From a virus (lineage: Duplodnaviria; Heunggongvirae; Uroviricota; Caudoviricetes), in the IMG/VR virus record IMGVR_UViG_3300005264_000029, positions 1 to 64,000 of that record: a stretch of DNA of 64,000 nt; one strand, written 5' to 3'. The position numbers and the translations under genes were made by a program. Within the stretch, counting starts at the first letter, position 1. Each line of letters starts with the position of its first letter. The notes under the pieces were generated by a model. The model had not been told where the DNA came from. It ran no database searches and worked only from the letters and a program-made list of their open reading frames with translations. Positions 29,435 to 43,803 of the stretch are shown piece after piece.

Positions 29435-29473
29435 AATTGAAATCAAAAACATTTTAATTCAAAATAATTTTTA

Positions 29474-29487
29474 CTAGGCATGCCTAG
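29474..29487. promoter_or_regulatory. perfect 14-bp palindrome CTAGGCATGCCTAG; first TGCCTAGA cluster (29474-29545)
   Basis: motif about 20 times in window vs about 6 expected, in four clusters. Confidence 0.5.
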
Positions 29488-29802
29488 ACCAGCACTAGAA
29501 AATCTAGGCATGATCTTGTTCTCTAATTTTTCCTAGGCATGATCTTGATCTCGATTTTTTCAAATTCTTATAAAATCAATTTCGTATTTAATATCAATCG
29601 ATTTCGAATTCAATTAAAATCAATTTCGAATTCAATCGAAATAATAAAACACCCATACGAAATCGATATAATACACTATTGAATAAAACACGAAATAAAC
29701 ATATTTTTCTAAGTAGTAAAAAAGTTTTTATTTTTCACTTTTTAGTTATAAAAATATACTCAAAAAATAAACTTATACTTTACTCTTTTATAGTGGTTAT
29801 AA

Positions 29803-29880
29803 AATGTTATAAACATTTAAGTAGTTATTTTATTATTAAGTGAAAAGATAAAACTTTTTATTTAAACTTTAAAAAATAAA
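29803..29880 (+). promoter_or_regulatory. promoter-leader copy 1 of hyper-AT island
   Basis: 'GGTTATAAAATGTTATAAACATTTAAGTA...AAGTGAAAAGATAAAACTTTTTATTTAAACTTTAAAAAATAAAAATG' similar to 32315-32396 and 36095-36180. Confidence 0.45.
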
Positions 29881-29881
29881 A

Positions 29882-30070
29882 ATGAATAATATAAAAATAA
29901 TAAAAAGTTTTGATTCATATAAAACTTATATTTTAGGAGTTAAAACAAAAATGAATATAAAGCAATTAAGGAGCTTAAAAAAGTTTTTTAATATGAGTAT
30001 TATAAAAAGTAATAATCTTTATAATATGGACTTACTAAGGACTATAAAAAGGAGTTATAAAAATGAATAA
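29882..30070 (+). CDS. hypothetical K/N-rich protein (62 aa)
   Basis: ORF track. Confidence 0.35.
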   Translation: MNNIKIIKSFDSYKTYILGVKTKMNIKQLRSLKKFFNMSIIKSNNLYNMDLLRTIKRSYKNE

Positions 30071-30359
30071 AGAAATAAAAAAATATGAAGTAAGAGAAAT
30101 AAACACAAGTGAAGTAATGTATAAACATTGCTTTAATAATGAAATTATTTATTTAGGTAATGATTTATATTTATTAGATATTGACAGTTTAGGCGATAGA
30201 GATTTTATATTATATGAATTTGAAGAAGATTTTATATTAGAAAATTCTACAAAAATAAATGATTCAGATTTAACAACAGAAGATATAAAAAACGAAATTA
30301 AATATTTAAAAACTAGTTTAGAAAATGATTTAGCAATTATAAAAAGTTTAGAAAAATGA
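30063..30359 (+). CDS. hypothetical protein (98 aa)
   Basis: ORF track. Confidence 0.4.
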   Translation: MNKEIKKYEVREINTSEVMYKHCFNNEIIYLGNDLYLLDIDSLGDRDFILYEFEEDFILENSTKINDSDLTTEDIKNEIKYLKTSLENDLAIIKSLEK

Positions 30360-30535
30360 ATAATTCAAAAATATATAAAGGTTATAAAATTATTTTCGAA
30401 CCAAAATTTAAAGGTTTTAAAGTAAATGTAAGTAAAAATAATTCTTTAGAAAGTGGACAAGAGTTTTTAAGTAGTAATATTGATACTGCTTTTAAACTTT
30501 CTAAAGAGTGGATAAATTTGGAGTTAAAAAAATGA
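30356..30535 (+). CDS. hypothetical protein (59 aa) with 'PKFKGFK' box
   Basis: ATGA overlaps; box shared with 30840 gene. Confidence 0.3.
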   Translation: MNNSKIYKGYKIIFEPKFKGFKVNVSKNNSLESGQEFLSSNIDTAFKLSKEWINLELKK

Positions 30536-30843
30536 ATAAAAAATATTATAGTATTGAAGAGTTTAAAGAATTAAAGGAATACTCAAAAGAGTATAATAAT
30601 ATTAAAAATGATTTAAAGGATTTTAAAAAATCTTATTGTTTTTATATTATAAAAATTAATAAAGAAAATATTGCTTTATTTGTATTTGATAAATATGAAT
30701 ATAATATAAATTTATACTATCAAAACGAAATTATAATTTATAATAATTTTGATAGTTTTGATTATTCAAGTATTGAAAAAAATTTAATAGATGAATATTA
30801 TTTAAAAGATTATATAACTAAAAAACTTGAGGTTTTAAAATGA
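30532..30843 (+). CDS. hypothetical protein (103 aa)
   Basis: track ORF 30508; start at ATGA junction. Confidence 0.4.
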   Translation: MNKKYYSIEEFKELKEYSKEYNNIKNDLKDFKKSYCFYIIKINKENIALFVFDKYEYNINLYYQNEIIIYNNFDSFDYSSIEKNLIDEYYLKDYITKKLEVLK

Positions 30844-31067
30844 ATAACCTATTCAAAAAAGATTTATTAAAACCTAAATTTAAAGGTTTTAAATTGTCTA
30901 ATAAAACAAAAGTTAAATTAAAATTTATTATTAAACATATTATATTTAATAAATTTTTTAATCATTTATTTAGTAGAAAAGAAAATTTAAATTTATATAA
31001 TGTTTTAACAAGTAAATTAAACCACAGAAAAATAAATATAAAAAAACATTATATTATTATAAACTAA
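30840..31067 (+). CDS. hypothetical basic protein (75 aa)
   Basis: ORF track. Confidence 0.35.
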   Translation: MNNLFKKDLLKPKFKGFKLSNKTKVKLKFIIKHIIFNKFFNHLFSRKENLNLYNVLTSKLNHRKINIKKHYIIIN

Positions 31068-31071
31068 AAAA

Positions 31072-31167
31072 ATGAATATACCAAATATATTAAAAAATAA
31101 AAGAAACGGCGACTTTATAGAAATTGAGTATAAAGAAAATTTAAATAATATGGAGTTAAGAAAATGA
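31072..31167 (+). CDS. hypothetical peptide (31 aa)
   Basis: ATGA coupling into RadC gene. Confidence 0.2.
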   Translation: MNIPNILKNKRNGDFIEIEYKENLNNMELRK

Positions 31168-31544
31168 AAAAAATAAAAATTTCAAATAGTGACGCAGTTT
31201 TTAAGAATATTAAAAAACATTTTGATTTATACCAAGAAAATTTTATATTAATTGGTATAAATTCAAATAGTGAAATATTATTAAATGAAGTAATTTTTAA
31301 AGGGGGTGTAAATAATTGTAACATTGATTTAAAGATTATATTTAAAAAATTATTATTAAATAATTGTACTAGTTTTTTTATTGCACACAATCACCCAAGT
31401 AAAAATTTAAATCCAAGTCAATCAGATTTAACAATAAATAATAAAATAAAAAAAGCTAGTGAAATATTAGATTTAAAATTATTAGATAGTTTAATATTTA
31501 GTGATAATAATTTTTATTCGTGTTTTGATAATGAGGTTTTATAA
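31164..31544 (+). CDS. radC: RadC-like JAB/MPN domain protein
   Basis: 'FIAHNHPSKNLNPSQSDL' matches JAB H-x-H-x(7)-S-x(2)-D. Confidence 0.65.
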   Translation: MKKIKISNSDAVFKNIKKHFDLYQENFILIGINSNSEILLNEVIFKGGVNNCNIDLKIIFKKLLLNNCTSFFIAHNHPSKNLNPSQSDLTINNKIKKASEILDLKLLDSLIFSDNNFYSCFDNEVL

Positions 31545-31968
31545 AGTGGTTAAATCAAAAATTATATTTATCAAAACTAAAGAAAATTGTTTTAAACAAA
31601 TTGGGAGTTTAAAATCTTTACATTTGGTTAAATGTAAAGTCATAAATGAATATATTACTTTAAATAATATTGTAAATAGACATAATCAAATTAAAGAAAA
31701 TACTACTTTAATAATTTTACATAATAAAAAAGAAGTGGAATTTAAATATAAAAAATCTAAGGAATTTAAATATATAAATTATGATAAATTACAAAACTTT
31801 TATTTTAATTTTTTACACGGATTTTTAAACAACTTTGAAAATATTTATATTATATATTTGAAGAGAAATAAACAATATTTAAAAGTTACACCTTTTAGTA
31901 ATATAAATAAAAATAGAGATAATTTTAAAGACATAATCACACCACTTTTAAAATTATATAATGATTAA
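31531..31968 (+). CDS. hypothetical protein (145 aa)
   Basis: track ORF 31501; ATG 31531 follows 'GAGGTTTTA' SD. Confidence 0.4.
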   Translation: MRFYKVVKSKIIFIKTKENCFKQIGSLKSLHLVKCKVINEYITLNNIVNRHNQIKENTTLIILHNKKEVEFKYKKSKEFKYINYDKLQNFYFNFLHGFLNNFENIYIIYLKRNKQYLKVTPFSNINKNRDNFKDIITPLLKLYND

Positions 31969-32047
31969 AAATAAAGAACGATATTAAAAATTTAATTTAA
32001 ATTAAAATATCTATTTGAATTAAAACGAAATTAAAGAACACAAACCG

Positions 32048-32110
32048 TGCCTAGATCTCGATGCCTAGATTTTAAAGAACAAACTGTGCCTAGATTTTTT
32101 TCTAGGCATT
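32048..32110. promoter_or_regulatory. second TGCCTAGA motif cluster (4 copies)
   Basis: GTGCCTAGATCTCGATGCCTAGATT...TGTGCCTAGATTTTTTTCTAGGCA. Confidence 0.45.
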
Positions 32111-32314
32111 TAGATAATCATTATTTTTTAACTATCTTAAAACATACCTTAAACTATAATATACTTATACTTAGAATATATAAAAGCATATAAGAAGACT
32201 TTTTTAAAAAGTAATGTTATGACATAACTTAAAACCTTTATACTTAAAATTTAAAATAAATATTATAGTGTCACTTGTCATTATATAAAAGTGTGTGTAA
32301 AATACACCACCTTA

Positions 32315-32396
32315 ACGAAAGGTTTATAAATACTTAAGTACTTATATAATTATCAAGTGAAGAGATAAAAACTTTTTACTTAAACCTTAAAAAATG
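32315..32396 (+). promoter_or_regulatory. promoter-leader copy 2; 32270-32347 near-identical to 36050-36127
   Basis: 'CGAAAGGTTTATAAATACTTAAGTACTTATATA' plus leader. Confidence 0.5.
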
Positions 32397-33368
32397 AAAA
32401 AAGAAATAAATAAAAAAACTTATGATTTAAAAAAATCACAAGATAATAAAAATAGTGAAGAAGTTATAAAAGCTAATATAAAAAATGTTAGTAAATTTAA
32501 TTTTAAAAAAAGTAATGAAATAATTAAAACTAATAATAATAAATTAACAACTTCAAGAGTTGCAATAAATAAAAAAGTTGAAGAGTTTAAATTTAATTTG
32601 GAACAAAAGACAAAAGAAGAAAATAAAAAACTAAGAGAAGAAACAAAAGAAGAAGAAGAAAACCAAGAGATTATAAACAAAACTAGAAGAGAGTTAAATT
32701 ATAGATTTAATTCTTTTTATAATTTTAAACCAAGTGTTTTAAACAATATGGATAAAATTAAAAACTTTGAATTTTATGAAAAAGGCGAAATTTTAAAAAC
32801 TTTTAAAGACGATAAAAAAGAGGGTTTAGTTTATTATCAAACTAATAATAATAATGTTAATTGTTATAGTTTAGGTTTTAGCTTTTGGAGTATTTACGAC
32901 ACTTTAAATTTATTAAATAATAGGTCAAGTGTTTTTTATCAAAATAAAATATACTTTTCAAATAGAGTTAGATTTAATTATAAAAATGAAAAAGATTCTT
33001 TTAATTTTCATACCGATTATTTAATAAAAAACTTTTCAAGTATTACAGAATTAAAAGAATATTACGAAAAGAACAAAAATAAAATCGAAAACAATATAAA
33101 TAAAAAACTTGAAATTGTAGAAAAAGAATTAAACCTTTATAATAAATTGTTTAAATCAAATTCAGATTTTAAAAAACATTTCCAAGAAGAAAAACTATAT
33201 TATATTATAAATAATTTTGGTTCAAGTATAAGAGATAACACTTTAAAAGATTGGGATAAAAAAAATAAATCAAATTACAATAATGAATTAATCGAAATAC
33301 TAAAAGATTTAAATTTAAAATTAGACTTTTCAAATAGATTTGATATTAAAGTTAAAGAGGTTTTATAA
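32394..33368 (+). CDS. large K/N/E-rich hypothetical protein (324 aa)
   Basis: ORF track; ends ...KEVL*. Confidence 0.5.
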   Translation: MKKEINKKTYDLKKSQDNKNSEEVIKANIKNVSKFNFKKSNEIIKTNNNKLTTSRVAINKKVEEFKFNLEQKTKEENKKLREETKEEEENQEIINKTRRELNYRFNSFYNFKPSVLNNMDKIKNFEFYEKGEILKTFKDDKKEGLVYYQTNNNNVNCYSLGFSFWSIYDTLNLLNNRSSVFYQNKIYFSNRVRFNYKNEKDSFNFHTDYLIKNFSSITELKEYYEKNKNKIENNINKKLEIVEKELNLYNKLFKSNSDFKKHFQEEKLYYIINNFGSSIRDNTLKDWDKKNKSNYNNELIEILKDLNLKLDFSNRFDIKVKEVL

Positions 33369-33369
33369 A

Positions 33370-33594
33370 ATGGTTTCTATGCAATATATAAAAGAATTAG
33401 AATTACAAGACGGAATAAGTTTAAACGCTTATTTTGAATATATTTATTTATCTTTAATTAATGGACAACGAACACAAGTAAAAGAATTAATTAATAAATT
33501 AAATAAACCACAGAAATTAAATTTTCACGATTATTTAAATATGGTTTATCAAAACACAGAATATAAAAACGAATTAATAAGAGGTTTAATTTAA
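33370..33594 (+). CDS. hypothetical protein (74 aa)
   Basis: ATG after 'GAGGTTTTATAAA'. Confidence 0.4.
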   Translation: MVSMQYIKELELQDGISLNAYFEYIYLSLINGQRTQVKELINKLNKPQKLNFHDYLNMVYQNTEYKNELIRGLI

Positions 33595-33595
33595 A

Positions 33596-33997
33596 ATGGA
33601 AAATATAGAAAAATTAAAAAACAAAGTTAAAGAATTAAACAATATTATTTATAATATGGAACAAGAAAAATTTTTAACTAAGGTTGAATGTGTAAAATTT
33701 AAAAATAATAATAATGGTGATGTTATTAATTTATTAAGAATATTAGATAAAGAATTAAAAAATAAATTAGAAATTAGAAATTTATATAGTTGTAAATTAA
33801 AAACTAAAAACTTTCTAGTGTCTTTTAATTATTGTAATAGAAAAAATAAAATATTATTTACTTTTGAAAAAGGTTATTTTTCTCATTGTGAATATATAGA
33901 CATAACAACAATAATTAAAAGATTTAAAACTTTAAGATTTGAATTATATTATAATATAGAATATAAAGAAATTAGCTTAAATATAAATATTAAATAA
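33596..33997 (+). CDS. hypothetical protein (133 aa)
   Basis: ORF track. Confidence 0.45.
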   Translation: MENIEKLKNKVKELNNIIYNMEQEKFLTKVECVKFKNNNNGDVINLLRILDKELKNKLEIRNLYSCKLKTKNFLVSFNYCNRKNKILFTFEKGYFSHCEYIDITTIIKRFKTLRFELYYNIEYKEISLNINIK

Positions 33998-33999
33998 AA

Positions 34000-34161
34000 A
34001 TGGAACGAAAAGAATATTTATTAAAAATAAAACAAACTAAAGAAGATATAAAAAACGCAGAAACTAAATATAAAGATTATTCAAATAAAAACGATATTAT
34101 ACATAATCTTAAAATAAGTTTAGATATACAAGAATTTAATTTAAAAGAGGGCAGATTTTAA
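34000..34161 (+). CDS. hypothetical protein (53 aa)
   Basis: ATG-to-stop frame. Confidence 0.3.
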   Translation: MERKEYLLKIKQTKEDIKNAETKYKDYSNKNDIIHNLKISLDIQEFNLKEGRF

Positions 34162-34163
34162 AA

Positions 34164-34409
34164 ATGGAATATTTGAAAACTAAAGATAATTTAAATTTAA
34201 TAGGAAAGAGAGCAAGAATAAAAAACAATGTTTTAGGATATTGTAGTTTTTTATATAATTGTGAAGGAATTATAAAAAATGTTAATGATAAAATTTATCT
34301 CGAATTTAATAAAATTGCATATAGAGATGAAACAGACAAAATAAATAAATCTCCTTTTGGTATGAATGGGGTTTATATTTGTTATGGAGTTATAGAGGTT
34401 TTAAATTAA
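34164..34409 (+). CDS. hypothetical protein (81 aa)
   Basis: ORF track; ends ...IEVLN*. Confidence 0.4.
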   Translation: MEYLKTKDNLNLIGKRARIKNNVLGYCSFLYNCEGIIKNVNDKIYLEFNKIAYRDETDKINKSPFGMNGVYICYGVIEVLN

Positions 34410-34410
34410 A

Positions 34411-34650
34411 ATGAGTCAATATAAAAAAGATTTAATAAAAGAAATGAAAAGTTTTAATATTGAAATTAATAAAAAAGGTATTATGAGCAAAGCACATATA
34501 TTATTAATATTAAATACTATTGATTCAATAAACGATTTAAATACTTTATATATTATAGGTCATAGCTTTTTTGAACAATTAGTATTTTTAAAAATTGATT
34601 CAAGAGATTATTTAAAAGTTTTACAAAGTAGATACAATATTAAAAAATGA
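34411..34650 (+). CDS. hypothetical protein (79 aa)
   Basis: ORF track. Confidence 0.4.
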   Translation: MSQYKKDLIKEMKSFNIEINKKGIMSKAHILLILNTIDSINDLNTLYIIGHSFFEQLVFLKIDSRDYLKVLQSRYNIKK

Positions 34651-34859
34651 AACAGAAAACAGAAATTAAAATAAAAACTAAAAGAGAAAATAAAGACTTT
34701 TCAAATAAGGATATAAAAGAAATAAGAAAAGAAATAAGAAAGAGCGTTAATAATTCACAGACTACCGAAGAAGATTTAAATTTAAAGCTTAATGAAATTG
34801 ATAATGTTTTAAAGAACAAGAAGAAAACACATAATAAATATTATATGAGAGAATTATAA
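34647..34859 (+). CDS. hypothetical basic protein (70 aa)
   Basis: ORF track. Confidence 0.4.
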   Translation: MKQKTEIKIKTKRENKDFSNKDIKEIRKEIRKSVNNSQTTEEDLNLKLNEIDNVLKNKKKTHNKYYMREL

Positions 34860-34912
34860 AACCTATTGGTTTTATATATCGACTAAATAAAATGAAAGGA
34901 GAATTATAAAAA

Positions 34913-35149
34913 ATGAATGAGGAACAAAGCGAAGAATTAATAAAAGTTTTAATTGATGTAAAAGAAGAATTAAAAAATATTGTAAAGGTCTTAAAACCTA
35001 AGCAAGAAATAAAAACCGAAATAGTTAAAAAACATTTATTATCTATGCAAGAGCAAAGACTTATAAGATTTAAAAATTATGTTACTTCAAATAATTTTTA
35101 TAATACATTAACAGAAAAACAAAAAGAAGAGTTATTAAATTTAAAATGA
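34913..35149 (+). CDS. hypothetical protein (78 aa)
   Basis: ORF track. Confidence 0.4.
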   Translation: MNEEQSEELIKVLIDVKEELKNIVKVLKPKQEIKTEIVKKHLLSMQEQRLIRFKNYVTSNNFYNTLTEKQKEELLNLK

Positions 35150-35418
35150 TGAAACAATATAAATATAAAATACAATGGTTAATTGATGTTAATAAGGACT
35201 ATAAATTTAATAATGAAATTAAACAATTATTAAATATTATAGGAGTAAGAAGTTTAGATAAAATTGTTTTAAGAGATAATGATTATAAAATTATTGATAC
35301 ATATAATAGTTTTATTTGTTTTCCTTATGGCTTAGCAGAAAAAGAAACTTTAAAATATATTAAAAAACAAGTTAAGAAAAATAATAAAATTGTTTATGTT
35401 GATTTTGTGAGGACTTAA
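35146..35418 (+). CDS. hypothetical protein (90 aa)
   Basis: ORF track. Confidence 0.4.
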   Translation: MMKQYKYKIQWLIDVNKDYKFNNEIKQLLNIIGVRSLDKIVLRDNDYKIIDTYNSFICFPYGLAEKETLKYIKKQVKKNNKIVYVDFVRT

Positions 35419-35422
35419 AAAA

Positions 35423-35593
35423 ATGAGTTGTAAATATAAATTAAAATCTAATAAACATAATTTAAATTGTTTATCTTTATTTGAAGTTGTAGAATATATA
35501 AAACTTTATGATAAGGATAATACTATAAATAAAATTGAAATAACAAAAGACACAATAAACAAAGAACAAATAAAACAATACTATAATATTTAA
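35423..35593 (+). CDS. hypothetical protein (56 aa)
   Basis: ATG-to-stop frame. Confidence 0.3.
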   Translation: MSCKYKLKSNKHNLNCLSLFEVVEYIKLYDKDNTINKIEITKDTINKEQIKQYYNI

Positions 35594-35767
35594 ACTTATT
35601 ATTACTTTTATATATTGTTTATTAAAGTCTTATTAGCTTTGATAAACTCATTTTTTAAAAGTTTAAGTATTAGTACAATTTTAAAATAAAGGTCTTAAAT
35701 AAACCTTTATATAATTCTATTAAATAAAACAAATTAGATATATAATAAAAAATATTTTTATACAGAT

Positions 35768-35935
35768 CATGCCTAGATTGAAAGTATGCCTAGATTTTTA
35801 AACTTACTTAGATGCCTAGAGTGAAATAATATTCACTACTTTAATATATTATATTGTTCTTAAAATAATTAAAAAATTAATGAAATTATATTATAATTTA
35901 AATTTAAATCAAGTGACATAAGTCTAGGCATCTAC
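35768..35935. promoter_or_regulatory. third TGCCTAGA motif cluster (4 copies)
   Basis: CATGCCTAGATTG...TATGCCTAGATTT...GATGCCTAGAGTG...GTCTAGGCATC. Confidence 0.45.
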
Positions 35936-36094
35936 TTTAAAGTTGTGTATAGAGTGTTTTAATACTTGTTAGTATCTTATATTAAATATTAGAAGAGATA
36001 ATAAAAAAGTAATGTTATGACACCCTAAAAATTAAAATACTCTATACACTCATATATTTAATTATATAAAGTGTGTGTAAAATACACCACCTTA

Positions 36095-36180
36095 ACGAAA
36101 GGTTTATAAATACTTAAGTACTTATATATTTATCAAGTGAGAGAGTCACAACATAGACACTTTTACTTAAACTAAAAATG
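36095..36180 (+). promoter_or_regulatory. promoter-leader copy 3
   Basis: near-identical to 32315-32396. Confidence 0.5.
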
Positions 36181-36324
36181 GATAACGAAAATAATAAACA
36201 AAACAAAAAAACAGAATTTAAGGATTTAACAATTATGTTAAAAGTTGGTTGTGTTGGTGGAGTAATTACAATTATAAGTTTTACTATTAATTTCTTTATA
36301 GGATTCTTTGGAGCTTTAATTTAA
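36178..36324 (+). CDS. small membrane protein (48 aa)
   Basis: ATG after leader; C-terminal TM. Confidence 0.35.
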   Translation: MDNENNKQNKKTEFKDLTIMLKVGCVGGVITIISFTINFFIGFFGALI

Positions 36325-36325
36325 A

Positions 36326-37120
36326 ATGAAAAATATAAAAGAAACTACTATTAAGAAATATATATGGAACTATATTAGAGATAACTATTCTAGTGAAATT
36401 GAAGAGTATAAAAAACACCTTAAAGAATTTGAAATTAAATTGAATTTGAAAGAAGAAATAATTGAAACTGTTTTACAAGGATATGATGAAAACCATTATG
36501 GAACAGAATTATTAAATGGTAGTGATGAAAACGATATGGATATGTGGGATAGAGTAACTAGATTTAGAGATGAAGTTGAAGACCAAGATTTAGATGACTT
36601 AATTAAGTATATGGATAAAGAAGAAGAAATATTTTGGGATAGGCAGTATATAGATAGCGATTGGATTATGGAAGATATTATGCATGAATTCAAATGGGAT
36701 AAAAAAGATTATGATAAATATACTAATTATTGTGATAGTTATCAAGGTAGTTTACATTTAACAAATAAATACTTCGAGGGTATTAATTCATTTAATCAAG
36801 AGTATAGAAATAAAAATGATATTGAAGAACACTTAGCTTATAATTTCGATTTAATAGAAACTATGAATATGATTTTAATTGAAAACTATAAAGGGTATGA
36901 TGTAGATTATAAAGAATTTAGAAAAGAAATATCAAATACAAAAACTAAAGTTAAAGAGGAATTAGAAAAAAGATTAAAAGAATTTAATAAAGAGAAAAAT
37001 ACAATTCTAAAAGAATTAAAATTAGTTGATTGTAATAATATTTATTTAGTTGGATTAATTGAAAGTGATTTAGCAAGTAAAAATATAGAGATTAAAAGTA
37101 TTATAGAGGTTTTAAAATAA
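36326..37120 (+). CDS. acidic D/E-rich protein (264 aa)
   Basis: ORF track; ends ...IIEVLK*. Confidence 0.5.
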   Translation: MKNIKETTIKKYIWNYIRDNYSSEIEEYKKHLKEFEIKLNLKEEIIETVLQGYDENHYGTELLNGSDENDMDMWDRVTRFRDEVEDQDLDDLIKYMDKEEEIFWDRQYIDSDWIMEDIMHEFKWDKKDYDKYTNYCDSYQGSLHLTNKYFEGINSFNQEYRNKNDIEEHLAYNFDLIETMNMILIENYKGYDVDYKEFRKEISNTKTKVKEELEKRLKEFNKEKNTILKELKLVDCNNIYLVGLIESDLASKNIEIKSIIEVLK

Positions 37121-37268
37121 AAATGGTAAAAATTAATGAAGAATATATTATAGAACAAGGTCAAGAAGTTTATGGGGATATTAGAAATACAATAGATGAA
37201 GTTTTATTTAATGAGGATTATTAAAATGAGTGTAACGAATTTTAATAAACTGAACGAAACGAAGTGTA

Positions 37269-37451
37269 GTGAGGAATACTAAAATGAATGTAAAAGAATT
37301 AAAACAATTACTTACTAAGTTTGATGATAATATTGAAGTGTTAATATCTATGGATAGTGAGGGAAATATGTATCATAATTTAGATGATATTTATCATAAT
37401 AAAACTCAATTGGTTTTATATCCAAATGATGAAGATATAGAGGTAGATTAA
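37269..37451 (+). CDS. hypothetical 'MNVKEL' protein (60 aa); paralog of 41404 gene
   Basis: ORF track; CGAAACGAAGTG leader upstream. Confidence 0.4.
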   Translation: MRNTKMNVKELKQLLTKFDDNIEVLISMDSEGNMYHNLDDIYHNKTQLVLYPNDEDIEVD

Positions 37452-37453
37452 AA

Positions 37454-37633
37454 ATGGAAATTAATACAAGACTTGAAATGAGCGAATTAATACTTGATTT
37501 AATTGTAAAGAAAAGAAACACAGATTTAACACCAATTGAAAATAGAAGTTTAGAAATATTACAAAGAGTAAGAGAAGAGGATTTGAGCGATAGTGAAATA
37601 CCGAATGAAGTAAAACGAAATGATGATAATTAA
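37454..37633 (+). CDS. hypothetical protein (59 aa) ending 'LSDSEIPNEVK...'
   Basis: C-terminal box repeated at end of 37779 gene. Confidence 0.35.
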   Translation: MEINTRLEMSELILDLIVKKRNTDLTPIENRSLEILQRVREEDLSDSEIPNEVKRNDDN

Positions 37634-37635
37634 AA

Positions 37636-37776
37636 ATGGAAAAAGAATTAAAAGAATATTATGTAGATTTTGAAAGTATTATTGTTATGGCTAGAGATAT
37701 AGAACACGCTAGGGAATTAGGATTTGAGCATATAAATAAATGTGATGTAGAAGTTACAAATATAGAATTAAATTAA
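37636..37776 (+). CDS. hypothetical protein (46 aa)
   Basis: tight spacing. Confidence 0.3.
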   Translation: MEKELKEYYVDFESIIVMARDIEHARELGFEHINKCDVEVTNIELN

Positions 37777-37778
37777 AA

Positions 37779-38351
37779 ATGGAAAATAGATATAATTTAA
37801 GAATTGGAAACGATAGTAAGATTTACATTAATGGTGAAGTTATTAATGATGAAATATTCACACAAGAAAAATGTGGGTATGTTGTTGAAGAAAGAGATGA
37901 AACTATTAATAATCTAATTAATTGGATTAGTGAAAATTCAAGTAATCACGAAAGAGAATTAATGAAAGATGATTTAAAATATTTAATGAGTTGTACCGAT
38001 AAATATTTATTTAGTGATGTATCTACAAATAGTTATATTTTAGAAGAAACTGATATTTGTGTATTTGATAATATTTGTGAGGACATTTTAAATTTAAATC
38101 GAAATGGTAATAAAGTTATGAAAAGATATAATGTATCTTTTTTAGTATATGAAAGAGTTTGTCAATACATTGAAACTGATGAAACTGATGAAGATAAAAT
38201 ATTTGAAATGGCAGTAGATAAAGCGACAAAAGAACAAGAAAAAGTATATTGGCAAGTTGATAATCATATGATTGGAACTGATGTAGAAATTGAGAATTTG
38301 AGCGATAGCGAAATACCGAATGAAACGAAGTGTAATAAGGGGTTAGATTAA
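37779..38351 (+). CDS. acidic hypothetical protein (190 aa)
   Basis: ORF track. Confidence 0.5.
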   Translation: MENRYNLRIGNDSKIYINGEVINDEIFTQEKCGYVVEERDETINNLINWISENSSNHERELMKDDLKYLMSCTDKYLFSDVSTNSYILEETDICVFDNICEDILNLNRNGNKVMKRYNVSFLVYERVCQYIETDETDEDKIFEMAVDKATKEQEKVYWQVDNHMIGTDVEIENLSDSEIPNETKCNKGLD

Positions 38352-38352
38352 A

Positions 38353-38739
38353 ATGGGAAGATTCGTGACAGGAGAAGGCTTTGAATGGAAATTTGCTTTT
38401 GGAACTCAAGATAGTAGTTTTGGAGAAGTACTTGAAGAGATATTAAATGATGATGATGATAATTATGTAAATAGATTTGTTGGAACACAAAATCAAGGAG
38501 AACAATTAGAATTGTATATTGATGATATTAAAGATTTAATCAATATAATTAAATCCTATATTGGAGAAGACTTTAAAATTATTGAGTGGGATAAAAAAGA
38601 CACTTATTCAAGTGAAGAAGAAACACGAAAAGGAGCAGATAAAAAATATTGGGATAAATTAATGATGTTAAAATTTCAAAAATATTTAGAAAAAGAAAAC
38701 TTTTGTGAAGAATATTTAAACTTTTATGTGGAGTATTAA
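38353..38739 (+). CDS. acidic hypothetical protein (128 aa)
   Basis: ORF track. Confidence 0.5.
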   Translation: MGRFVTGEGFEWKFAFGTQDSSFGEVLEEILNDDDDNYVNRFVGTQNQGEQLELYIDDIKDLINIIKSYIGEDFKIIEWDKKDTYSSEEETRKGADKKYWDKLMMLKFQKYLEKENFCEEYLNFYVEY

Positions 38740-38742
38740 AAA

Positions 38743-39054
38743 ATGGTAAGAGATGTAAATACAAATATATATTTAAGAGCTTATTATAATAAGTTTAACT
38801 ATTATAATACTCGAAAAGAAATTGAAAGCTTATCAAGATTTTCAGATAATGATTTAAAATATGGTTTGAAAGTAATGCAAGATAATTCATTTATTAAACT
38901 TAAAAGTGATAGACTCCTTTATATTTTTAGTGAAATTGTTGATGTACTTGAAAACCTTAATACTTACAAATGTGAGAAATGCAATACAATATATTATACT
39001 AAAGAAGATTTAAAAGAATGTGAATGTTTTATATATGAGGAATTAGAAAAATGA
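38743..39054 (+). CDS. hypothetical protein with C-terminal CxxC...CxC (103 aa)
   Basis: ORF track. Confidence 0.45.
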   Translation: MVRDVNTNIYLRAYYNKFNYYNTRKEIESLSRFSDNDLKYGLKVMQDNSFIKLKSDRLLYIFSEIVDVLENLNTYKCEKCNTIYYTKEDLKECECFIYEELEK

Positions 39055-39254
39055 AACAGATTAAAAAACAATTATTATATATAGAAAATTATGATACCGA
39101 AAATGAAAAAGATATCATAAAGGAATTTGATACTTTAAAAGAAGTGTTTGAATTTATTGATAAAGAACAATTAGAAATATATACTATTTATGTTGAAATT
39201 GATAACAAGTGTTATAATATATGTACCGAAGAAGAGGGGTTAGAATTTAATTAA
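39051..39254 (+). CDS. hypothetical protein (67 aa)
   Basis: ORF track. Confidence 0.4.
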   Translation: MKQIKKQLLYIENYDTENEKDIIKEFDTLKEVFEFIDKEQLEIYTIYVEIDNKCYNICTEEEGLEFN

Positions 39255-39256
39255 AA

Positions 39257-39706
39257 ATGAGCTTTGAACATAACGAAATAATTGAGAAAAAAGATTTTTA
39301 TTGTAGAACTTGTAGTGAATGTGGGAAAGGAATGAATGAGGGTTTTTTAGTTGGTGGTGGAATGGAATACTATTGTACTGATGAATGCTTACATAAACAT
39401 TACACTAAAGAAGAATGGGAAAATGAAATGTATAGTGATGATAGTGATGAAAATTATTGGACAGAATGGGATATTGATGAAGAGTATGAACAATATTTAG
39501 AAGATAATAATTTCGAATTAAAACAGAATTACATTACAAATAATCAAGATATTAGAATGATAGAAAAACATATTTATAATCGTGATTATGATGACCTAAG
39601 CGATTATGGAAAAGGTATAAGAGATTTACTTAACTATCTAAATAAGAGTGAAGAAATAGAACAAAAAGATTTAATATATTGTGAACTAAAAGCGAGGAAT
39701 AAATAA
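39257..39706 (+). CDS. zinc-ribbon acidic protein (149 aa)
   Basis: 'CRTCSECG...YYCTDEC'. Confidence 0.5.
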   Translation: MSFEHNEIIEKKDFYCRTCSECGKGMNEGFLVGGGMEYYCTDECLHKHYTKEEWENEMYSDDSDENYWTEWDIDEEYEQYLEDNNFELKQNYITNNQDIRMIEKHIYNRDYDDLSDYGKGIRDLLNYLNKSEEIEQKDLIYCELKARNK

Positions 39707-39709
39707 GAA

Positions 39710-40009
39710 ATGGTAAATAAAAAATTAAAAAATTATAGAGTTTTTATGGTTAGAGTTTTTAGAAATGTAAAGTCATATGAAGTAAAAGCAACAAGTGAAA
39801 AAGAAGCTGAAAAATTGGCTGAAAAGGTAGCATACAAAACTAATAATCAATATGAATTATTATACAATAGTGTAGATAATGGATTTTGTGAAATAAATTC
39901 AGTAGAAATTAAAAAACTAGGATATCATATTAGCGATGAAACAAAACCTTTTAAAGTTAAAAAAATATTTGAAAACGATATTGGGAAAGTATATATTAGC
40001 AATGAATAA
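39710..40009 (+). CDS. hypothetical protein (99 aa)
   Basis: ORF track. Confidence 0.45.
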   Translation: MVNKKLKNYRVFMVRVFRNVKSYEVKATSEKEAEKLAEKVAYKTNNQYELLYNSVDNGFCEINSVEIKKLGYHISDETKPFKVKKIFENDIGKVYISNE

Positions 40010-40023
40010 AAAATGAATAAAAA

Positions 40024-40206
40024 ATGAATAAAGAAAATGTACTTGTAAAACCAATGAGTGATATAGATTATTTACAATTTAGAATTACTGATTTAATCAA
40101 TTCTAAATATAATATAGAAACAACAATTATTAATGTAAATAGATTATTTGAAGATTATAAAACTAAAGAGAGTACCGATAAAAAACTAAGAGGAATTGGA
40201 TTATAA
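40024..40206 (+). CDS. hypothetical protein (60 aa)
   Basis: ORF track. Confidence 0.35.
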   Translation: MNKENVLVKPMSDIDYLQFRITDLINSKYNIETTIINVNRLFEDYKTKESTDKKLRGIGL

Positions 40207-40210
40207 AAAA

Positions 40211-40477
40211 ATGGTGAAATTAATAAATATAGATAATTGTGTAAGTGCGTGGAGTGTTTTTGAAATTTCAAAAGAATTAGGATTGACTAATGAATTTGAA
40301 GAATGGAAAAATCAATTAGATAACACCTTTGAATGTTATGGAACTTATGAAGATGAAACATTTAATTGTGAGGATACAGAACTACTACATAACTTCTTAG
40401 TATTTTGTGGTGGTAATTATCAAATGATTATAGGTAAGGTATTCGATGATGATTTATTTAGAGTGATGAGGGTATAA
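40211..40477 (+). CDS. hypothetical protein (88 aa)
   Basis: track ORF 40196; internal ATG 40211 avoids overlap. Confidence 0.4.
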   Translation: MVKLINIDNCVSAWSVFEISKELGLTNEFEEWKNQLDNTFECYGTYEDETFNCEDTELLHNFLVFCGGNYQMIIGKVFDDDLFRVMRV

Positions 40478-40483
40478 ATAAAA

Positions 40484-40648
40484 ATGGTTAGATGTATAAA
40501 AGTTATTCAAGAATATACTATTGGTATATTTGAAAGAGAAGTTAATAAGGTTAATAATGAAATTACTAAACTATATGGGATAAAATATAATACTATAGTA
40601 TTACAAGATAATAGAATTGTGTATATTGCATATATAGATTATGAATAA
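40484..40648 (+). CDS. hypothetical protein (54 aa)
   Basis: ATG-to-stop frame. Confidence 0.3.
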   Translation: MVRCIKVIQEYTIGIFEREVNKVNNEITKLYGIKYNTIVLQDNRIVYIAYIDYE

Positions 40649-40658
40649 AAAAAAGAAA

Positions 40659-41195
40659 ATGGTAGAAATGATAGAATTAAAATTAGATGAAATTGAACAG
40701 ATGTTTTGTGAAGATGAGGGAATACTCTCTAAGTATAGTGAAGTAACAAAAGATACTATACTTGATTGGTTAGTTGAAAAAGGATATTATCACGATATAC
40801 AAAAATTATATATGGTAGAATATTATTCAGATGAAACCGATTTATCACATACAACTTTTGAATTATTTAAATCGTATGAAAATGCTAAAGGATTTACTAA
40901 AGGATTAGGAGAAAATGCTATACATATTGCTAGTGCAGATTTTGATATGAGATGTGTTTGGATAGAAGATAATCATTTACAATATAATGATGTTAGTGAA
41001 TTATATGATTTAAATTCTATGGAAATCTTAAAAGAATTTAAATTAAAAATCATTTCTGATAGAGAAGATTTTATAGAAGAATTACTAGGAACATTTAGAG
41101 AAGATGTTGTAAGAGAATATGCTACTGAACATTTTGAAAACTTATTATCAATAGAAGAGAATATAGATAAATTTCAGGAGTGGATTGTAAAATGA
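40659..41195 (+). CDS. acidic hypothetical protein (about 178 aa)
   Basis: track ORF 40641; start trimmed. Confidence 0.45.
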   Translation: MVEMIELKLDEIEQMFCEDEGILSKYSEVTKDTILDWLVEKGYYHDIQKLYMVEYYSDETDLSHTTFELFKSYENAKGFTKGLGENAIHIASADFDMRCVWIEDNHLQYNDVSELYDLNSMEILKEFKLKIISDREDFIEELLGTFREDVVREYATEHFENLLSIEENIDKFQEWIVK

Positions 41196-41401
41196 AAATT
41201 ACAGAAAAAACTATTAGAAAACAAATTGTAGAACAAGTTGATTTTTTGTTTAATACCTATTGTGATTATATAGAAAAAGAAAACTATTCACAAGAAGAAA
41301 ATGATGAAATTGAAAGTATATTTATGTCTTACAGAAATGTAATTGCAGGTACAGAGTGGATAGGAGAAAAACAAGAATATGAAAAATATGAGGTTCGATA
41401 A
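41192..41401 (+). CDS. hypothetical protein (69 aa)
   Basis: track ORF 41180; ATGA junction. Confidence 0.4.
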   Translation: MKITEKTIRKQIVEQVDFLFNTYCDYIEKENYSQEENDEIESIFMSYRNVIAGTEWIGEKQEYEKYEVR

Positions 41402-41403
41402 AA

Positions 41404-41553
41404 ATGAATGTAAAAGAATTAATTAAAGAATTAGAAAAAGTGGATAATAAGGAAAAAGAAGTATATGTTTATGATGATTGTGAAATATTTGAAATTGCTT
41501 TAGTTGATTTATCTATTAGTGATAGAGTCGATATTAATATAGGTGGATTGTAA
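41404..41553 (+). CDS. hypothetical 'MNVKEL' protein (49 aa)
   Basis: N-terminus matches 37269 gene. Confidence 0.35.
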   Translation: MNVKELIKELEKVDNKEKEVYVYDDCEIFEIALVDLSISDRVDINIGGL

Positions 41554-41554
41554 A

Positions 41555-41677
41555 ATGAGTTATTATATAGTTAAAGTAAAAGGAAACAGCGAAGAGTTTA
41601 TAGTTAATGGAAATAGTGCAGAACATAGTATTGAACTATTTAATAAGGCTTATGTAAATGTGGAGTTTGTAAAATGA
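41555..41677 (+). CDS. hypothetical protein (40 aa)
   Basis: ATGA coupling. Confidence 0.25.
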   Translation: MSYYIVKVKGNSEEFIVNGNSAEHSIELFNKAYVNVEFVK

Positions 41678-41874
41678 GCTATAATTGGAATGGTATGATA
41701 AAAATAAACTATGAAGATTGTTTAACTTTGTTTGATAATGAAATTGAAACATTTTTACTTTATGATGATAATACGGAAGCCGTAACAACTTCAAGACAAG
41801 AAATTTATAAACACTATAATTTAAGTGGAGAATTTGGAATCGAAAATGTAGAAGACATTGAAGTAGAACAATGA
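41674..41874 (+). CDS. hypothetical acidic protein (66 aa)
   Basis: ORF track. Confidence 0.4.
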   Translation: MSYNWNGMIKINYEDCLTLFDNEIETFLLYDDNTEAVTTSRQEIYKHYNLSGEFGIENVEDIEVEQ

Positions 41875-42212
41875 TTGAAGATTTAGATATAAAAACAATT
41901 ATACCATATTATGAAGTAAAGGGGTGTTTTGGATATGAAACAAAATCTAGTATGAGATTACTTAAACCTATTATTAATTTCTCTTCTAGGTTTGAAGAAG
42001 TTACAACTCATATTAGTAAAGTACTCAAAGCTTATGATATTAAACATAACATAATGTTTAGAGGTAATGCTTATCATTTAAGAATGTCACATATAACAAA
42101 TTGTCATAGATTTACTAAGTTGCTTGTAGATGGTGGAATGAGAGTGAGATTAAAAGAAGTTGAAGAAATGTATAACTATTGTAATAAAAATGATAAACGA
42201 AATAAAACTTAA
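41871..42212 (+). CDS. hypothetical protein (113 aa)
   Basis: ORF track. Confidence 0.45.
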   Translation: MIEDLDIKTIIPYYEVKGCFGYETKSSMRLLKPIINFSSRFEEVTTHISKVLKAYDIKHNIMFRGNAYHLRMSHITNCHRFTKLLVDGGMRVRLKEVEEMYNYCNKNDKRNKT

Positions 42213-42498
42213 ATTCAGAACAGAAGAAACTACAACAACTATAAATGCTAATATTAAACCTATGAGTCTTGAAGAGTATAAACAATATTTAACCAATAAT
42301 AAATATTATCTTTTCTATTTGATGTATAAAGGATATACAGACCAAGTTAATAAATACTCAAAGTTGCACGATACATTTATGATTTTGTTTGAAACTGAAA
42401 ACCAAAAGATATTTATTAATCATACTGATACTTGTATCACCGAAATATTTGAAATGTGGTATAAAGAAGAAACTAAATTAATTAATATTTTTGATTGA
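42190..42498 (+). CDS. hypothetical protein (102 aa)
   Basis: track ORF 42160 trimmed to ATG 42190. Confidence 0.4.
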   Translation: MINEIKLKFRTEETTTTINANIKPMSLEEYKQYLTNNKYYLFYLMYKGYTDQVNKYSKLHDTFMILFETENQKIFINHTDTCITEIFEMWYKEETKLINIFD

Positions 42499-42611
42499 TT
42501 ATGAAAGTACTTTGTGATGTTTATATATTTCATCATTAAATAAAATATAGTATCCTTAAAACTTAGTTTTTAGGTCACGACCGAAACGAAGTGCAGGGAA
42601 TAAAATTAAAA

Positions 42612-42737
42612 ATGAGCGAAGAATATTACGAAGAAGAAAATAGACAAAGTTGGTATGATAGATATAACTCTAGGACTTCAAATTCATTAGAAGAAAAAAG
42701 ACTTAATGTTATTGATGTAATTAATGGATATAATTAA
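42612..42737 (+). CDS. hypothetical acidic peptide (41 aa)
   Basis: preceded by CGAAACGAAGTGCAGGGAATA leader. Confidence 0.3.
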   Translation: MSEEYYEEENRQSWYDRYNSRTSNSLEEKRLNVIDVINGYN

Positions 42738-42738
42738 A

Positions 42739-42996
42739 ATGAAACATAAAACCTTTTTAATTATATTTTTATCTTTAATAATTATTCTATGTTTTGTATA
42801 TTTAGGATTTATAATATATGAATCTAATAATGATAATAATAATAATAATGATACAGAAAAGGAAATTACTGATTGTTATGATAGATATGGAAATAAAATT
42901 ATAGGACAACAATGTGAAGTATCTGATAGAAACTTTCCTATACATTTAGTATTTTTAGCAATGATTATTATATTTATAGGATTTATGCATATTTAA
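42739..42996 (+). CDS. two-TM membrane protein (85 aa)
   Basis: track ORF 42724 trimmed. Confidence 0.4.
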   Translation: MKHKTFLIIFLSLIIILCFVYLGFIIYESNNDNNNNNDTEKEITDCYDRYGNKIIGQQCEVSDRNFPIHLVFLAMIIIFIGFMHI

Positions 42997-42997
42997 A

Positions 42998-43222
42998 ATG
43001 AATTTAGAAAATAATACAGACGGAAAAAGTACAATGACAATTCAATTGAGTAATATCATTGAAGAATTACATAAAGATAATAAATCAATTATCTTCGATG
43101 AGGCTATGAGTTCTATGGTTAAATTTGATAGAACAAAAGAAGACGAATTATTTAATATTGAACTTGAAAGAATATTACATAGAACAGAAAAAATAATTGA
43201 TAAACTAAATAATCGATTATAA
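42998..43222 (+). CDS. hypothetical protein (74 aa); last plus-strand gene
   Basis: ORF track. Confidence 0.4.
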   Translation: MNLENNTDGKSTMTIQLSNIIEELHKDNKSIIFDEAMSSMVKFDRTKEDELFNIELERILHRTEKIIDKLNNRL

Positions 43223-43695: not shown

Positions 43696-43803
43696 TATGC
43701 CTAGTTATGAATTTCAAAATTTATAAACCTTTGTTTATATATCTACTATAAATTTATACTTGCCTAGAATGTGAATTGTTTTCGATTGAATTCGAAATTA
43801 AAA

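Follow-up and report, generated by a model that had tools for sequence, protein, structure and literature searches.

Mobile regulatory cassettes named promoter-early stem-loop (PeSL) units were described in the hyperplastic regions of T4-type phages, where they stand on either side of orphan genes, stop transcription and start it anew, and give rise by recombination to insertions and deletions as well as mini-circles (Arbiol et al., 2010, PMC2839356; Comeau et al., 2014, PMC4122927). An arrangement of this kind is considered here in positions 1 to 64,000 of IMG/VR virus record IMGVR_UViG_3300005264_000029 (hereafter the window, i.e., the whole 64,000-nt stretch analysed), which belongs to a metagenome scaffold of 126,202 bp (ENA ERZ23491059, DOMB18-1_SAMN06288063_METAG-scaffold_45; 78 kb of it examined) and is treated as an uncultivated virus-like element; the identical sequence is also found in JGI and Logan assemblies. 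The subject is an AT-rich region, the island, which a first inspection of the sequence (the original prediction) had delimited at 29440-36180 and regarded as a laterally acquired module or a nested element. The best reading is instead that the region is organised by PeSL-like regulatory and boundary cassettes and is not a foreign insert, i.e., an organisation of a known kind with a different promoter and an added array of sites. Stated at full extent, positions 29.44-43.99 kb would form an accessory orphan-gene part of the element, in which three co-directional operons are headed by cassettes, co-regulated and prone to shuffling, a proposal to which we give about an even chance.

The likeness to PeSL units concerns several traits, namely (i) small composite cassettes, in which a strong promoter and a stem-loop follow the stop codon of the preceding gene, recur in an AT-rich and plastic region of orphan genes, (ii) the cassettes stand immediately upstream of orphan genes, the three found here heading orphan operons, with a leader present nowhere else in the 103 kb searched, (iii) the genes behind a cassette differ between relatives, and (iv) the leader hairpin resembles one PeSL subclass in which the stem-loop lies just downstream of the promoter. 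There are also differences. The promoter is not of the sigma-70 early type of PeSL units, the conserved block here being GG-TTTATAAA at about -30 from the ATG; the cassettes head multi-gene operons, whereas a PeSL unit serves one orphan gene; a whole cassette is much longer (350-450 bp) and includes a four-copy array of a 9-bp GC-rich site without PeSL counterpart; recombination and mini-circles are known for PeSL units, whereas the present cassettes are known from sequence alone; and the element is not a T4-like myovirus.

Cassettes and Leader Hairpins

All cassettes follow one order, namely a boundary zone in which T5-T7 runs accompany four ATGCCTAGA sites, an AT-rich spacer of 170-270 bp, an upstream element, a class I promoter and a hairpin leader (Table 1). 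The promoter-leader copies lie near 29803, 32315 and 36095. Copies 2 and 3 have 73 nt in common with one mismatch, and not the 78 identical bp first reported, with more similarity upstream; copy 1 is 70-80% similar. What had been presented as a triplicated promoter-leader has to be divided, since only the leader is limited to three sites in the window, while the promoter core occurs genome-wide, with nine strong copies on the plus strand, a weak one at 29806 and one on the minus strand. The weak copy is that of cassette 1, which scores 13.9 against the position weight matrix vs 35-51 for the strong copies. The core of cassette 2 includes a TACTTAAGTA palindrome, and the upstream element GTGTGTGTAAAATACACCACC is common to cassettes 2 and 3.

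In all three cassettes the ATG follows the TATA box by 71-76 nt, most genes of the element being leaderless instead. The resulting leader of 40-45 nt has a hairpin at its extreme 5' end in the three cassettes and in a fourth copy carried by a related 1,107-bp JGI contig (L102), with z-scores between -3.5 and -4.5 and a dG of -7.8 to -13.1 kcal/mol in four of four copies. The inner stem is made of different sequence in cassette 3 and in L102, the covariation being minimal (one pair, four sequences), and a covariance model of the leader retrieved these four copies only in the 103 kb searched.

Two further observations concern cassettes 2 and 3. A box of the form AGAAGA...AAAAAGTAATGTTATGACA is conserved between them, at 32188-32224 and 35986-36022, about 100 nt upstream of the TATA box and with a TATA-like sequence some 30 nt before each copy; it may represent a small transcript or a further binding site. 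Besides, an independent assembly of the same sample contains a contig (Logan SRR6301447_70602, L082) which corresponds to window positions 32319-36097 and breaks exactly at the promoter repeats of the two cassettes, as expected for a 73-nt repeat; its extent also corresponds exactly to what would be excised by recombination between cassettes 2 and 3.

Table 1. Position and content of the features discussed, with base composition by codon position (GC1, GC2, GC3) for blocks of the window.
Feature	Coordinates	Strand	Content
Boundary cluster R1	29435..29565		four (A)TGCCTAG sites: 29474 (minus), 29481 (plus), 29503 (minus), 29532 (minus)
22-bp tandem repeat	29558..29640		TAAAATCAATTTCGAATTCAAT, about 3.5 copies
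Cassette 1 promoter-leader	29798..29881	plus	degenerate core GTTATAAA at 29806; hairpin 29836-29865
Operon 1	29882..31968	plus	7-8 small K/N/I-rich orphan ORFs and a RadC-like JAB gene
Boundary cluster R2	32048..32108		direct TGCCTAGA at 32048, 32062, 32087; inverted site 32101
Cassette 2	32288..32393	plus	upstream element GTGTGTGTAAAATACACCACC; core CGAAAGG-TTTATAAA, TATA 32323; hairpin 32355-32381; ATG 32394
Operon 2	32394..35593	plus	10 orphan ORFs
Boundary cluster R3	35770..35930		direct sites 35770, 35787, 35813; inverted site 35923
Cassette 3	36068..36177	plus	upstream element and core of cassette 2, TATA 36103; hairpin 36135-36168; ATG 36178
Operon 3	36178..43222	plus	about 24 small ORFs, acidic products (E+D 20%), GC 23.8%; GC1 0.365, GC2 0.211, GC3 0.146
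End of plus strand arm	43329..43471		one GTGCCTAGA site (43329); perfect 43-bp tandem repeat, 2.4 copies (43368-43471)
77-aa orphan gene	43462..43735 (ORF 43462-43695)	minus	only minus strand class I promoter, TATA 43727
C4 array	43755..43978		69/83-bp repeats with ATGCCTATGCCTAGA, GGCATGCC, GAATTCAAT and AAAAAC-N-TTTTAATT blocks; all sites direct
Class II promoter copies	57844-57855, 59929-59940, 60558-60569, 62061-62072	minus	about 30 nt before leaderless starts
Class II promoter copy	26039-26050	plus	about 30 nt before leaderless start
Class II promoter copies, scaffold past the right end of the window (L172)	near 5960, 6900 of L172		about 30 nt before leaderless starts
Island			GC1 0.22-0.26, GC2 0.16, GC3 0.105-0.112
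Minus strand arm		minus	GC1 0.435, GC2 0.384, GC3 0.136
First block	1-6.4 kb		GC1 0.404, GC2 0.289, GC3 0.162
Second block	6.4-11 kb		GC1 0.313, GC2 0.229, GC3 0.147
Third block	11-29.4 kb		GC1 0.389, GC2 0.273, GC3 0.212

A Relative Carrying the Same Cassette

Among the genes of the island, RadC alone has relatives, the closest of which is encoded by L102 with 75% amino acid and 81% nucleotide identity to the window RadC (crude synonymous divergence dS about 0.41, ratio of nonsynonymous to synonymous divergence dN/dS about 0.4). In its 1.1 kb, this contig holds seven GCCTAG sites vs about 0.03 expected from an estimate based on base composition. Upstream of RadC, five sites are in minus orientation, four of them clustered at 3-115 and one standing at 455 beside the upstream element, the sequence of which is retained as GGTGTGTAGAAAATACCAC; after RadC, two sites in plus orientation (direct) follow a T10 run. 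A promoter-leader 73-74% identical to those of cassettes 2 and 3 (E=1.5e-17) stands directly upstream of RadC, and a box of about 80 nt is present in one copy before the promoter and another after the downstream cluster. The only homologous module found has both the motif clusters and the promoter-leader, absence of the clusters being what the original prediction had named as evidence against itself. At the divergence of L102, an 8-mer under no constraint would survive with a probability of about 0.05 (estimated from the proportion of synonymous differences, pS), and the retention of the clusters despite this argues for function.

Between the window and L102, the cassette is conserved while the genes behind it differ. 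In L102, of which 1.1 kb is available, RadC stands directly between two cassettes, while it is the sixth gene of operon 1 in the window. Beyond this contig, looking for the same module in other genomes, as originally suggested, brought no copy in phage, plasmid, IMG/VR or metagenome collections. In particular, (i) the island had no match among INPHARED phages (megablast/tblastn) or PLSDB plasmids (blastn), (ii) scans of IMG/VR with two patterns of the promoter core gave chance matches only, (iii) three spaced TGCCTAGA copies, sought in IMG/VR, turned up in nothing but unrelated tandem repeats, (iv) the IMG/VR matches had no protein in common with the window beyond LamG repeats, and (v) a scan of metagenome contigs with a degenerate promoter gave 60 single-match loci, all unrelated. 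Two GCCTAG-enriched contigs (L126 and L139) were discarded as relatives on account of different flanks.

Clusters of the GCCTAG Site

The 8-mer TGCCTAGA is present in 15 copies vs 0.99 expected, a number that none of 100 shuffles reached. Counted by their GCCTAG core, 18 sites with the consensus ATGCCTAGA(T) were recognised, all intergenic and gathered in clusters at 29474-29540, 32048-32108, 35770-35930 and 43329-43921; no further GCCTAG was found in the fetched flanking scaffold (6 kb + 8 kb beyond the window). The 8-mer had been called palindromic; it is not itself a palindrome and is found in both orientations. That a motif cluster precedes each promoter-leader copy is borne out by the first three clusters, and the repeated unit of motif cluster, promoter-leader and operon proposed at the outset is real, with three such units.

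These three clusters, each placed where the preceding operon ends (3' end) and 173-266 bp ahead of the TATA box, differ in internal layout. Besides the palindrome CTAGGCATGCCTAG, R1 contains T5-T6 runs and an inverted pair of 9 bp with members 14 nt apart; it is followed by a 22-bp tandem repeat, the GAATTCAAT block of which reappears in the fourth cluster (C4), L102 having a TTCGATT-rich stretch at the same place. In R2, the last two sites enclose a T7 run and make up an 8-6-8 inverted repeat, while the outer pair of R3, AGATGCCTAGA and TCTAGGCATCT, measures 11 bp with members about 100 nt apart.

Such inverted pairs could suggest that the clusters act as nucleic-acid structures, i.e., hairpin terminators, stabilisers of 3' ends or palindromes comparable to repetitive extragenic palindromic sequences or bacterial interspersed mosaic elements (REP/BIME), the 9-mer being kept by common descent of duplicated cassettes. 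R1, R2 and R3 each have one inverted pair (9-11 bp; spacing of 14, 6 and about 100 nt), no other sequence being GC-rich in this DNA of 18% GC, the pair of R2 around its T7 run is the sole terminator-like hit, the R2 region folds with a z-score of -2.3, and the clusters directly follow operon ends together with T5-T7 runs. However, most copies are direct repeats, C4 contains at least six direct sites and no inverted one, and the cluster after RadC in L102 consists of two direct sites; folding gives only a marginal z-score in R1 (-1.7) and is no better than shuffles in R3 (+0.55); and one site covers a predicted transcription start instead of a 3' end. The structural explanation is accordingly doubtful, though worth keeping in mind. 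Binding by a protein is favoured over a pure hairpin because the repeats are mostly direct, C4 lacks an inverted copy, the fold of R3 is at chance and one site lies over a start site; ATGCCTAGA is most likely a protein-binding site.

The layout of R2 also recalls the core of a tyrosine-recombinase site, with (G)TGCCTAGA-TTTTTT-TCTAGGCA(T) providing arms of 8-9 bp, a 6-bp spacer and arm-like direct copies. The clusters would then be the recombination sites of the XerA-like tyrosine recombinase encoded at 19717-20661, and the operons would be cassettes as in integrons or shufflons; such a recombinase gene is indeed present in the element, and L102 has a different gene behind its cassette. Nevertheless, an inverted pair with a 6-bp spacing exists in one of four clusters, the others having spacings of 0, 14 or about 100 nt or no pair at all; the recombinase is encoded 9 kb away, and no site lies beside its gene; each cassette has its own promoter, unlike integron cassettes, which are promoterless, end in attC and depend on a single Pc; and nothing is needed beyond the long homology between cassettes (73-125 nt), which is enough for homologous exchange. 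This makes site-specific recombination at the clusters very unlikely.

Fourth Cluster and 77-aa Gene

The island had been thought to end at 36180. Yet, operon 3, headed by cassette 3 and lying outside 29440-36180, runs to 43,222, and a fourth cluster absent from the original prediction follows at 43329-43921, hence the system extends over 29.44-43.99 kb and not over 29.44-36.18 kb. C4 is where two transcription directions converge, plus strand genes occupying positions 1 to 43,222 and minus strand genes 64,000 down to 43,462; the convergence coincides with the 43-bp tandem repeat, each unit of which holds an inverted repeat. Further on, a perfect tandem of two 69-bp units (43838-43978) lies upstream of a gene for a 77-aa orphan protein, and the six or more sites of C4 are all direct. 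R1 and C4 have AAAAAC-N-TTTTAATT, GGCATGCC and GAATTCAAT in common, in the same orientation, but are otherwise only patchily similar.

In the 77-aa gene, whose ATG is 32 nt from the box, a ATGCCTAG site (43697) lies between TATA and ATG, over the predicted transcription start. Archaeal repressors usually act over the transcription start, and the site is in their typical place. From this copy, the gene appears to share the control of the operons and is a candidate autoregulator. The protein itself may be the binder of the motif; no real homologue was found, and its AlphaFold2 (AF2) model is unreliable (predicted local distance difference test, pLDDT, 55) and too poor for searching.

Short direct and inverted repeats around extremely AT-rich DNA, as in R3, where three direct sites and one inverted site stand on either side of about 100 bp of AT-rich DNA, are also expected of replication-origin iterons or of partition sites. 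The linear plasmid-prophage N15 has dispersed centromere sites, and the clusters could be compared with these, their proximity to promoters being then secondary. Second repeat types do occur in R1 and C4 (the 22-bp TTCGAATTCAAT tandem and the perfect 69-bp and 43-bp tandems), and C4 stands at the strand-bias switch near 43 kb. That switch, though, coincides with the change of transcription direction and is thus uninformative on replication. Moreover, four separate arrays with irregular spacing (14, 25, 17 and 26 nt) are unlike a single iteron origin, no gene for Rep, Orc/Cdc6 or ParA/ParB was recognised in the 78 kb examined, and the clusters go closely with the cassette-specific leader (three of three), which points to transcription. 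A role in replication or partition is therefore quite unlikely for the clusters.

Promoter Classes

Two conserved promoter classes were recognised in the element. The class I core, A(A/G)G-TTTATAAA-nACTTAA-n4-TTATAT, is found genome-wide, inside the island and outside it; strong plus strand copies were located by weight matrix at 1971, 4734, 11078, 14051, 15386, 21104, 26678, 32323 and 36103, besides the weak one at 29806 (plus) and one on the minus strand at 43727, with about zero in shuffles. In the nine strong plus strand copies and the minus strand copy, an element of the C(G/T/A)AAAGG type lies directly upstream of TTTATAAA. Class II, (C)TAGATAATAAT-TACATATATAAAC, precedes genes mainly of the minus strand arm; its box TACA-TATATAAA occurs in eight exact copies, three of them on the plus strand, and has no conserved -10 element.

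Conservation in either class centres on an 8-bp T(T/A)TATAAA box together with specific flanks upstream of it. Considering ORFs (open reading frames) of at least 40 codons, 11 of 18 boxes are followed by an ATG 28-36 nt after their first T, and for the 12 boxes with conserved flanks this distance is 30-36 nt in nine; starts 28-36 nt after boxes lack any Shine-Dalgarno sequence. Archaeal promoters of the B recognition element (BRE)/TATA type typically have the box about 30 nt before leaderless starts and a BRE-type element directly upstream. The likeness lies in the 8-bp box, the purine-rich (C)GAAAGG-type element and an ATG 30-36 nt further on in most copies. By contrast with archaeal leaderless promoters, the three island cassettes have structured leaders of 40-45 nt without Shine-Dalgarno sequence. 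The promoters are quite probably of the archaeal BRE/TATA type, with predicted transcription starts, and the existence of two classes suggests two archaeal-type promoter sets, distinct in timing or in the factor involved. A sigma-70 reading, TTTATA-16-TATAAT, fits some copies only, for which such a promoter is possible.

Some proteins lean the same way. The recombinase matches archaeal XerA best (7e-14, others 5e-6 or worse) and its sole PDB hit is 4a8e, which we take to be XerA of Pyrococcus abyssi; TatC and the signal peptidase score slightly higher with archaeal models (TatC-Arch and archaeal/ER-type signal peptidase). Altogether, the XerA_Arch, TatC-Arch and archaeal signal-peptidase scores lean towards an archaeal setting, the best PDB matches of the ligase being mixed.

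Composition and Orphan Proteins

The guanine-plus-cytosine (GC) content of 29441-36180 is 18.0%, in line with the 17-20% first estimated by eye, vs 27.7% for 1-29440, 23.8% for 36181-43250 and 31.3% for the minus strand arm, the drop setting in near 29750 and fading past about 36250. The island proteins were rightly described as rich in lysine, asparagine and isoleucine (K 16%, N 12.5%, I 10-12%); they are also rich in phenylalanine and tyrosine, while glycine, alanine and proline each stay below 2%. Conversely, ATGA overlaps, taken for a trait of the island, account for 4 of 15 gene junctions there and are no commoner than elsewhere. No convincing Pfam hit was obtained for any of 44 ORFs between 29.9 and 45 kb (a scan from which RadC was excluded), and the few PHROG matches of these ORFs are all to families of unknown function; the 324-aa product of the first gene of operon 2 has no homologue among 5.8 billion proteins.

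Resolved by codon position (Table 1), GC3 is near the floor across the whole element, with 0.105-0.112 in the island vs 0.136-0.212 elsewhere, and the deficit of the island is mainly in GC1 and GC2, i.e., in amino-acid make-up. This pattern fits weakly constrained, fast-evolving orphan proteins under strong AT pressure, for which a foreign donor is not needed. A caution for genome scans follows, in that a sharp GC drop can stem from the amino-acid make-up of weakly constrained orphan genes and not from foreign origin.

Lateral acquisition, i.e., arrival of 29.44-36.18 or 29.44-43.98 kb, with its own signals, from a donor richer in AT, either as an island or as a nested mobile element, would account for the sharp GC step at about 29.75 kb, for a GC3 of 0.11 below that of the adjacent 11-29.4 kb block (0.21), for the blocks of R1 and C4 in direct orientation at both ends of a 14.5-kb segment, and for the confinement of motif clusters and leader to that segment. 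Phage genomic islands and morons show, likewise, a compositional step, accessory cargo and promoter and terminator signals of their own. Here, on the contrary, the signals belong to the element itself, the same promoter core serving eight other sites of the plus strand arm. Low GC3 is also found in the minus strand arm (0.136), at 6.4-11 kb (0.147) and in operon 3 (0.146), and the shift is mostly one of amino-acid usage at codon positions 1 and 2. Pfam and PHROG searches of the 44 ORFs revealed no integrase or transposase, and there is no tRNA, the XerA-like gene lying at 19.7 kb and TnpB at 14.1 kb; the patchy similarity of R1 and C4 does not amount to att-like or otherwise clean flanking repeats; no copy turned up in the phage, plasmid, IMG/VR and metagenome searches; and the RadC cassette of L102 is equally AT-rich (19% GC), which makes composition a trait of the lineage. 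The laterally acquired module of the original prediction is consequently judged unlikely.

RadC-Like JAB Protein

The only recognisable product of the island is, as first noticed, a RadC-like JAB protein (ORF 31164-31544, plus strand), which matches Pfam RadC PF04002 with E=4.3e-29 and 101 bits (cut-off 22.1) over 117 of 121 profile positions. At 126 aa, it is a stand-alone JAB domain without the N-terminal part of cellular RadC, and the NCBIfam RadC models match it below their full-length cut-offs, as would be expected of a lone domain. The JAMM motif E...HxH-x7-S-xx-D is intact (E42, H75-N-H77, S85, D88) and invariant in an alignment of four sequences. The gene has no cassette of its own, and one more gene separates it from R2.

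RadC-type JAB proteins are typical cargo of accessory regions. The window protein resembles the RadC-like JAB/JAMM proteins (PF04002) of phages and conjugative elements in being a stand-alone domain with intact E, HxH, S and D residues, encoded among small accessory genes of a mobile element, and differs from genomic and phage RadC by an identity of at most 40% and by the missing N-terminal part. Reference genomes and phages yielded bacterial relatives only, which do not identify the host. A more distant homologue (L103, 53%) lies downstream of a gene that is ArdC-like by sequence inspection.

Proposed Mechanism and Its Weak Points

Coming back to the PeSL-like organisation, each cassette would end upstream transcription and restart it, turning the operon behind it into an independent, similarly regulated module. 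In such a scheme, ATGCCTAGA would be recognised by a sequence-specific DNA-binding protein acting both as boundary or roadblock and as repressor; the 77-aa gene would fall under the same control through the site on its predicted start, as expected of a candidate autoregulator; and the 5' hairpin would modulate mRNA stability or translation. By analogy with PeSL units, near-identical cassettes could provide the recombination homology by which modules of orphan genes are moved, deleted or swapped, and the operon genes probably serve early host takeover or counter-defence. A more specific version, in which mobile regulatory cassettes of an archaeal virus, composed of a four-copy ATGCCTAGA array, a BRE/TATA promoter and a hairpin leader, co-regulate and shuffle modules by means of a virus-encoded binder of a new family, the 77-aa protein being the candidate, is rather doubtful.

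Several points weigh against this interpretation. A distance of 173-266 bp between cluster and promoter is far for a classical operator; T5+ runs occur within operons too, which weakens the inference of terminators; and no binder of ATGCCTAGA was identified, the 77-aa candidate having neither a real homologue nor a reliable model. The upstream GTGTGT...ACAC stem was rejected as a conserved structure, as L102 (z -1.3) keeps the sequence and not the pairing. Early timing and a counter-defence role have analogy as their only source. As for the host, an archaeon is no more than probable, since all archaeal-leaning hidden Markov model (HMM) hits are under curated cut-offs and the RadC relatives of reference genomes and phages all bacterial (at most 40% identity). 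Finally, the case for shuffling is thin, consisting of one comparison with a single short relative, with no sequences spanning a recombination junction.

If true, the organisation and shuffling of accessory genes by cassettes would extend beyond T4-type phages to an unrelated, probably archaeal virus-like element, and the logic of the cassette would work with another type of promoter, supplemented by an array of protein-binding sites. Being short and well defined, the sites, promoter and leader hairpin could be used as search keys for dark-matter elements and fast-evolving accessory genes, RadC/JAB included.

Other Features of the Element

Genes of the element are mostly small and tightly packed, with GGAG-type ribosome-binding sites at internal genes. 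The standard code fits, translation table 11 giving 83% coding-strand coverage with TGA, TAG and TAA all used as stops, by which an alternative genetic code was ruled out. The window contains no Rfam family and no tRNA, and the element has no match to known phages (megablast/tblastn vs INPHARED). Products of the plus strand arm include TatC, flotillin/Band 7, an ATP-dependent DNA ligase, TnpB, the tyrosine recombinase, a signal peptidase (ER/archaeal-type) and a PD-(D/E)XK exonuclease, while the minus strand arm encodes two giant Laminin_G_3 proteins and glycine/serine/threonine-rich proteins without family.

TatC, flotillin/Band 7 and the signal peptidase (732-1436, 2242-3621 and 26073-26552) are membrane-biogenesis genes, an unusual cargo for a virus-like element. 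The last of these, a Peptidase_S24 protein, was considered as a repressor of the CI/LexA type and rejected, as its N-terminal membrane helix and the motifs SMEP, HR and GDDNN identify an ER/archaeal-type signal peptidase. TnpB (14048-15341), which belongs to the RNA-guided endonuclease family (NCBIfam E=1.5e-50), is apparently leaderless, given a class I TATA box 31 nt before its start; it has no close relative among GTDB species genomes. The exonuclease (28646-29434) adjoins the left side of the island and has many homologues, the best of which (43-46% identity) are on contigs labelled giant-virus metagenome-assembled genomes and on large viral contigs, without synteny or common neighbours. 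A 264-aa protein of the right flank has no relatives in IMG/VR, a 562-aa protein has no INPHARED (megablast/tblastn) or PLSDB (blastn) match, and an apparent hit of 611 aa was dismissed as a translated tandem repeat.

Repeats are also present away from the cassettes. The window starts (1-131) with a perfect tandem of four 27-bp units in coding sequence, which adjoins an N run in the ENA scaffold. About 20 very small genes form an array at 6400-10800, where GC is low for a second time (21-24%); a conserved gene junction, ACAAnTAATTAGATTAAGACAAATG, occurs there in seven copies, and many of the products end in ...N; internal duplications relate 7189-7353 to 7794-7958 (84%) and 7407-7510 to 10642-10745 (100%), and the array may be a paralogous family with a common stop-restart signal. 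In 23398-25112 and 27232-27594, four ORFs have an N-terminal CxxC...CxxC zinc ribbon, followed in three of them by a basic region and KQY/R-rich repeats, with a 33/45-bp periodicity in 23956-24333; they may be nucleic-acid-binding paralogues. On the minus strand (44980-57821), the adjacent Laminin_G_3 ORFs of 2510 and 1770 codons are in different frames and meet at 50289-50292, where the ENA gene call has one product of 4353 aa; a frameshift, either programmed or a sequencing error, could join the two. In the scaffold past the right end of the window (L172, 253-2392), consecutive ORFs contain halves of an intein splicing domain (Pfam PF14890).

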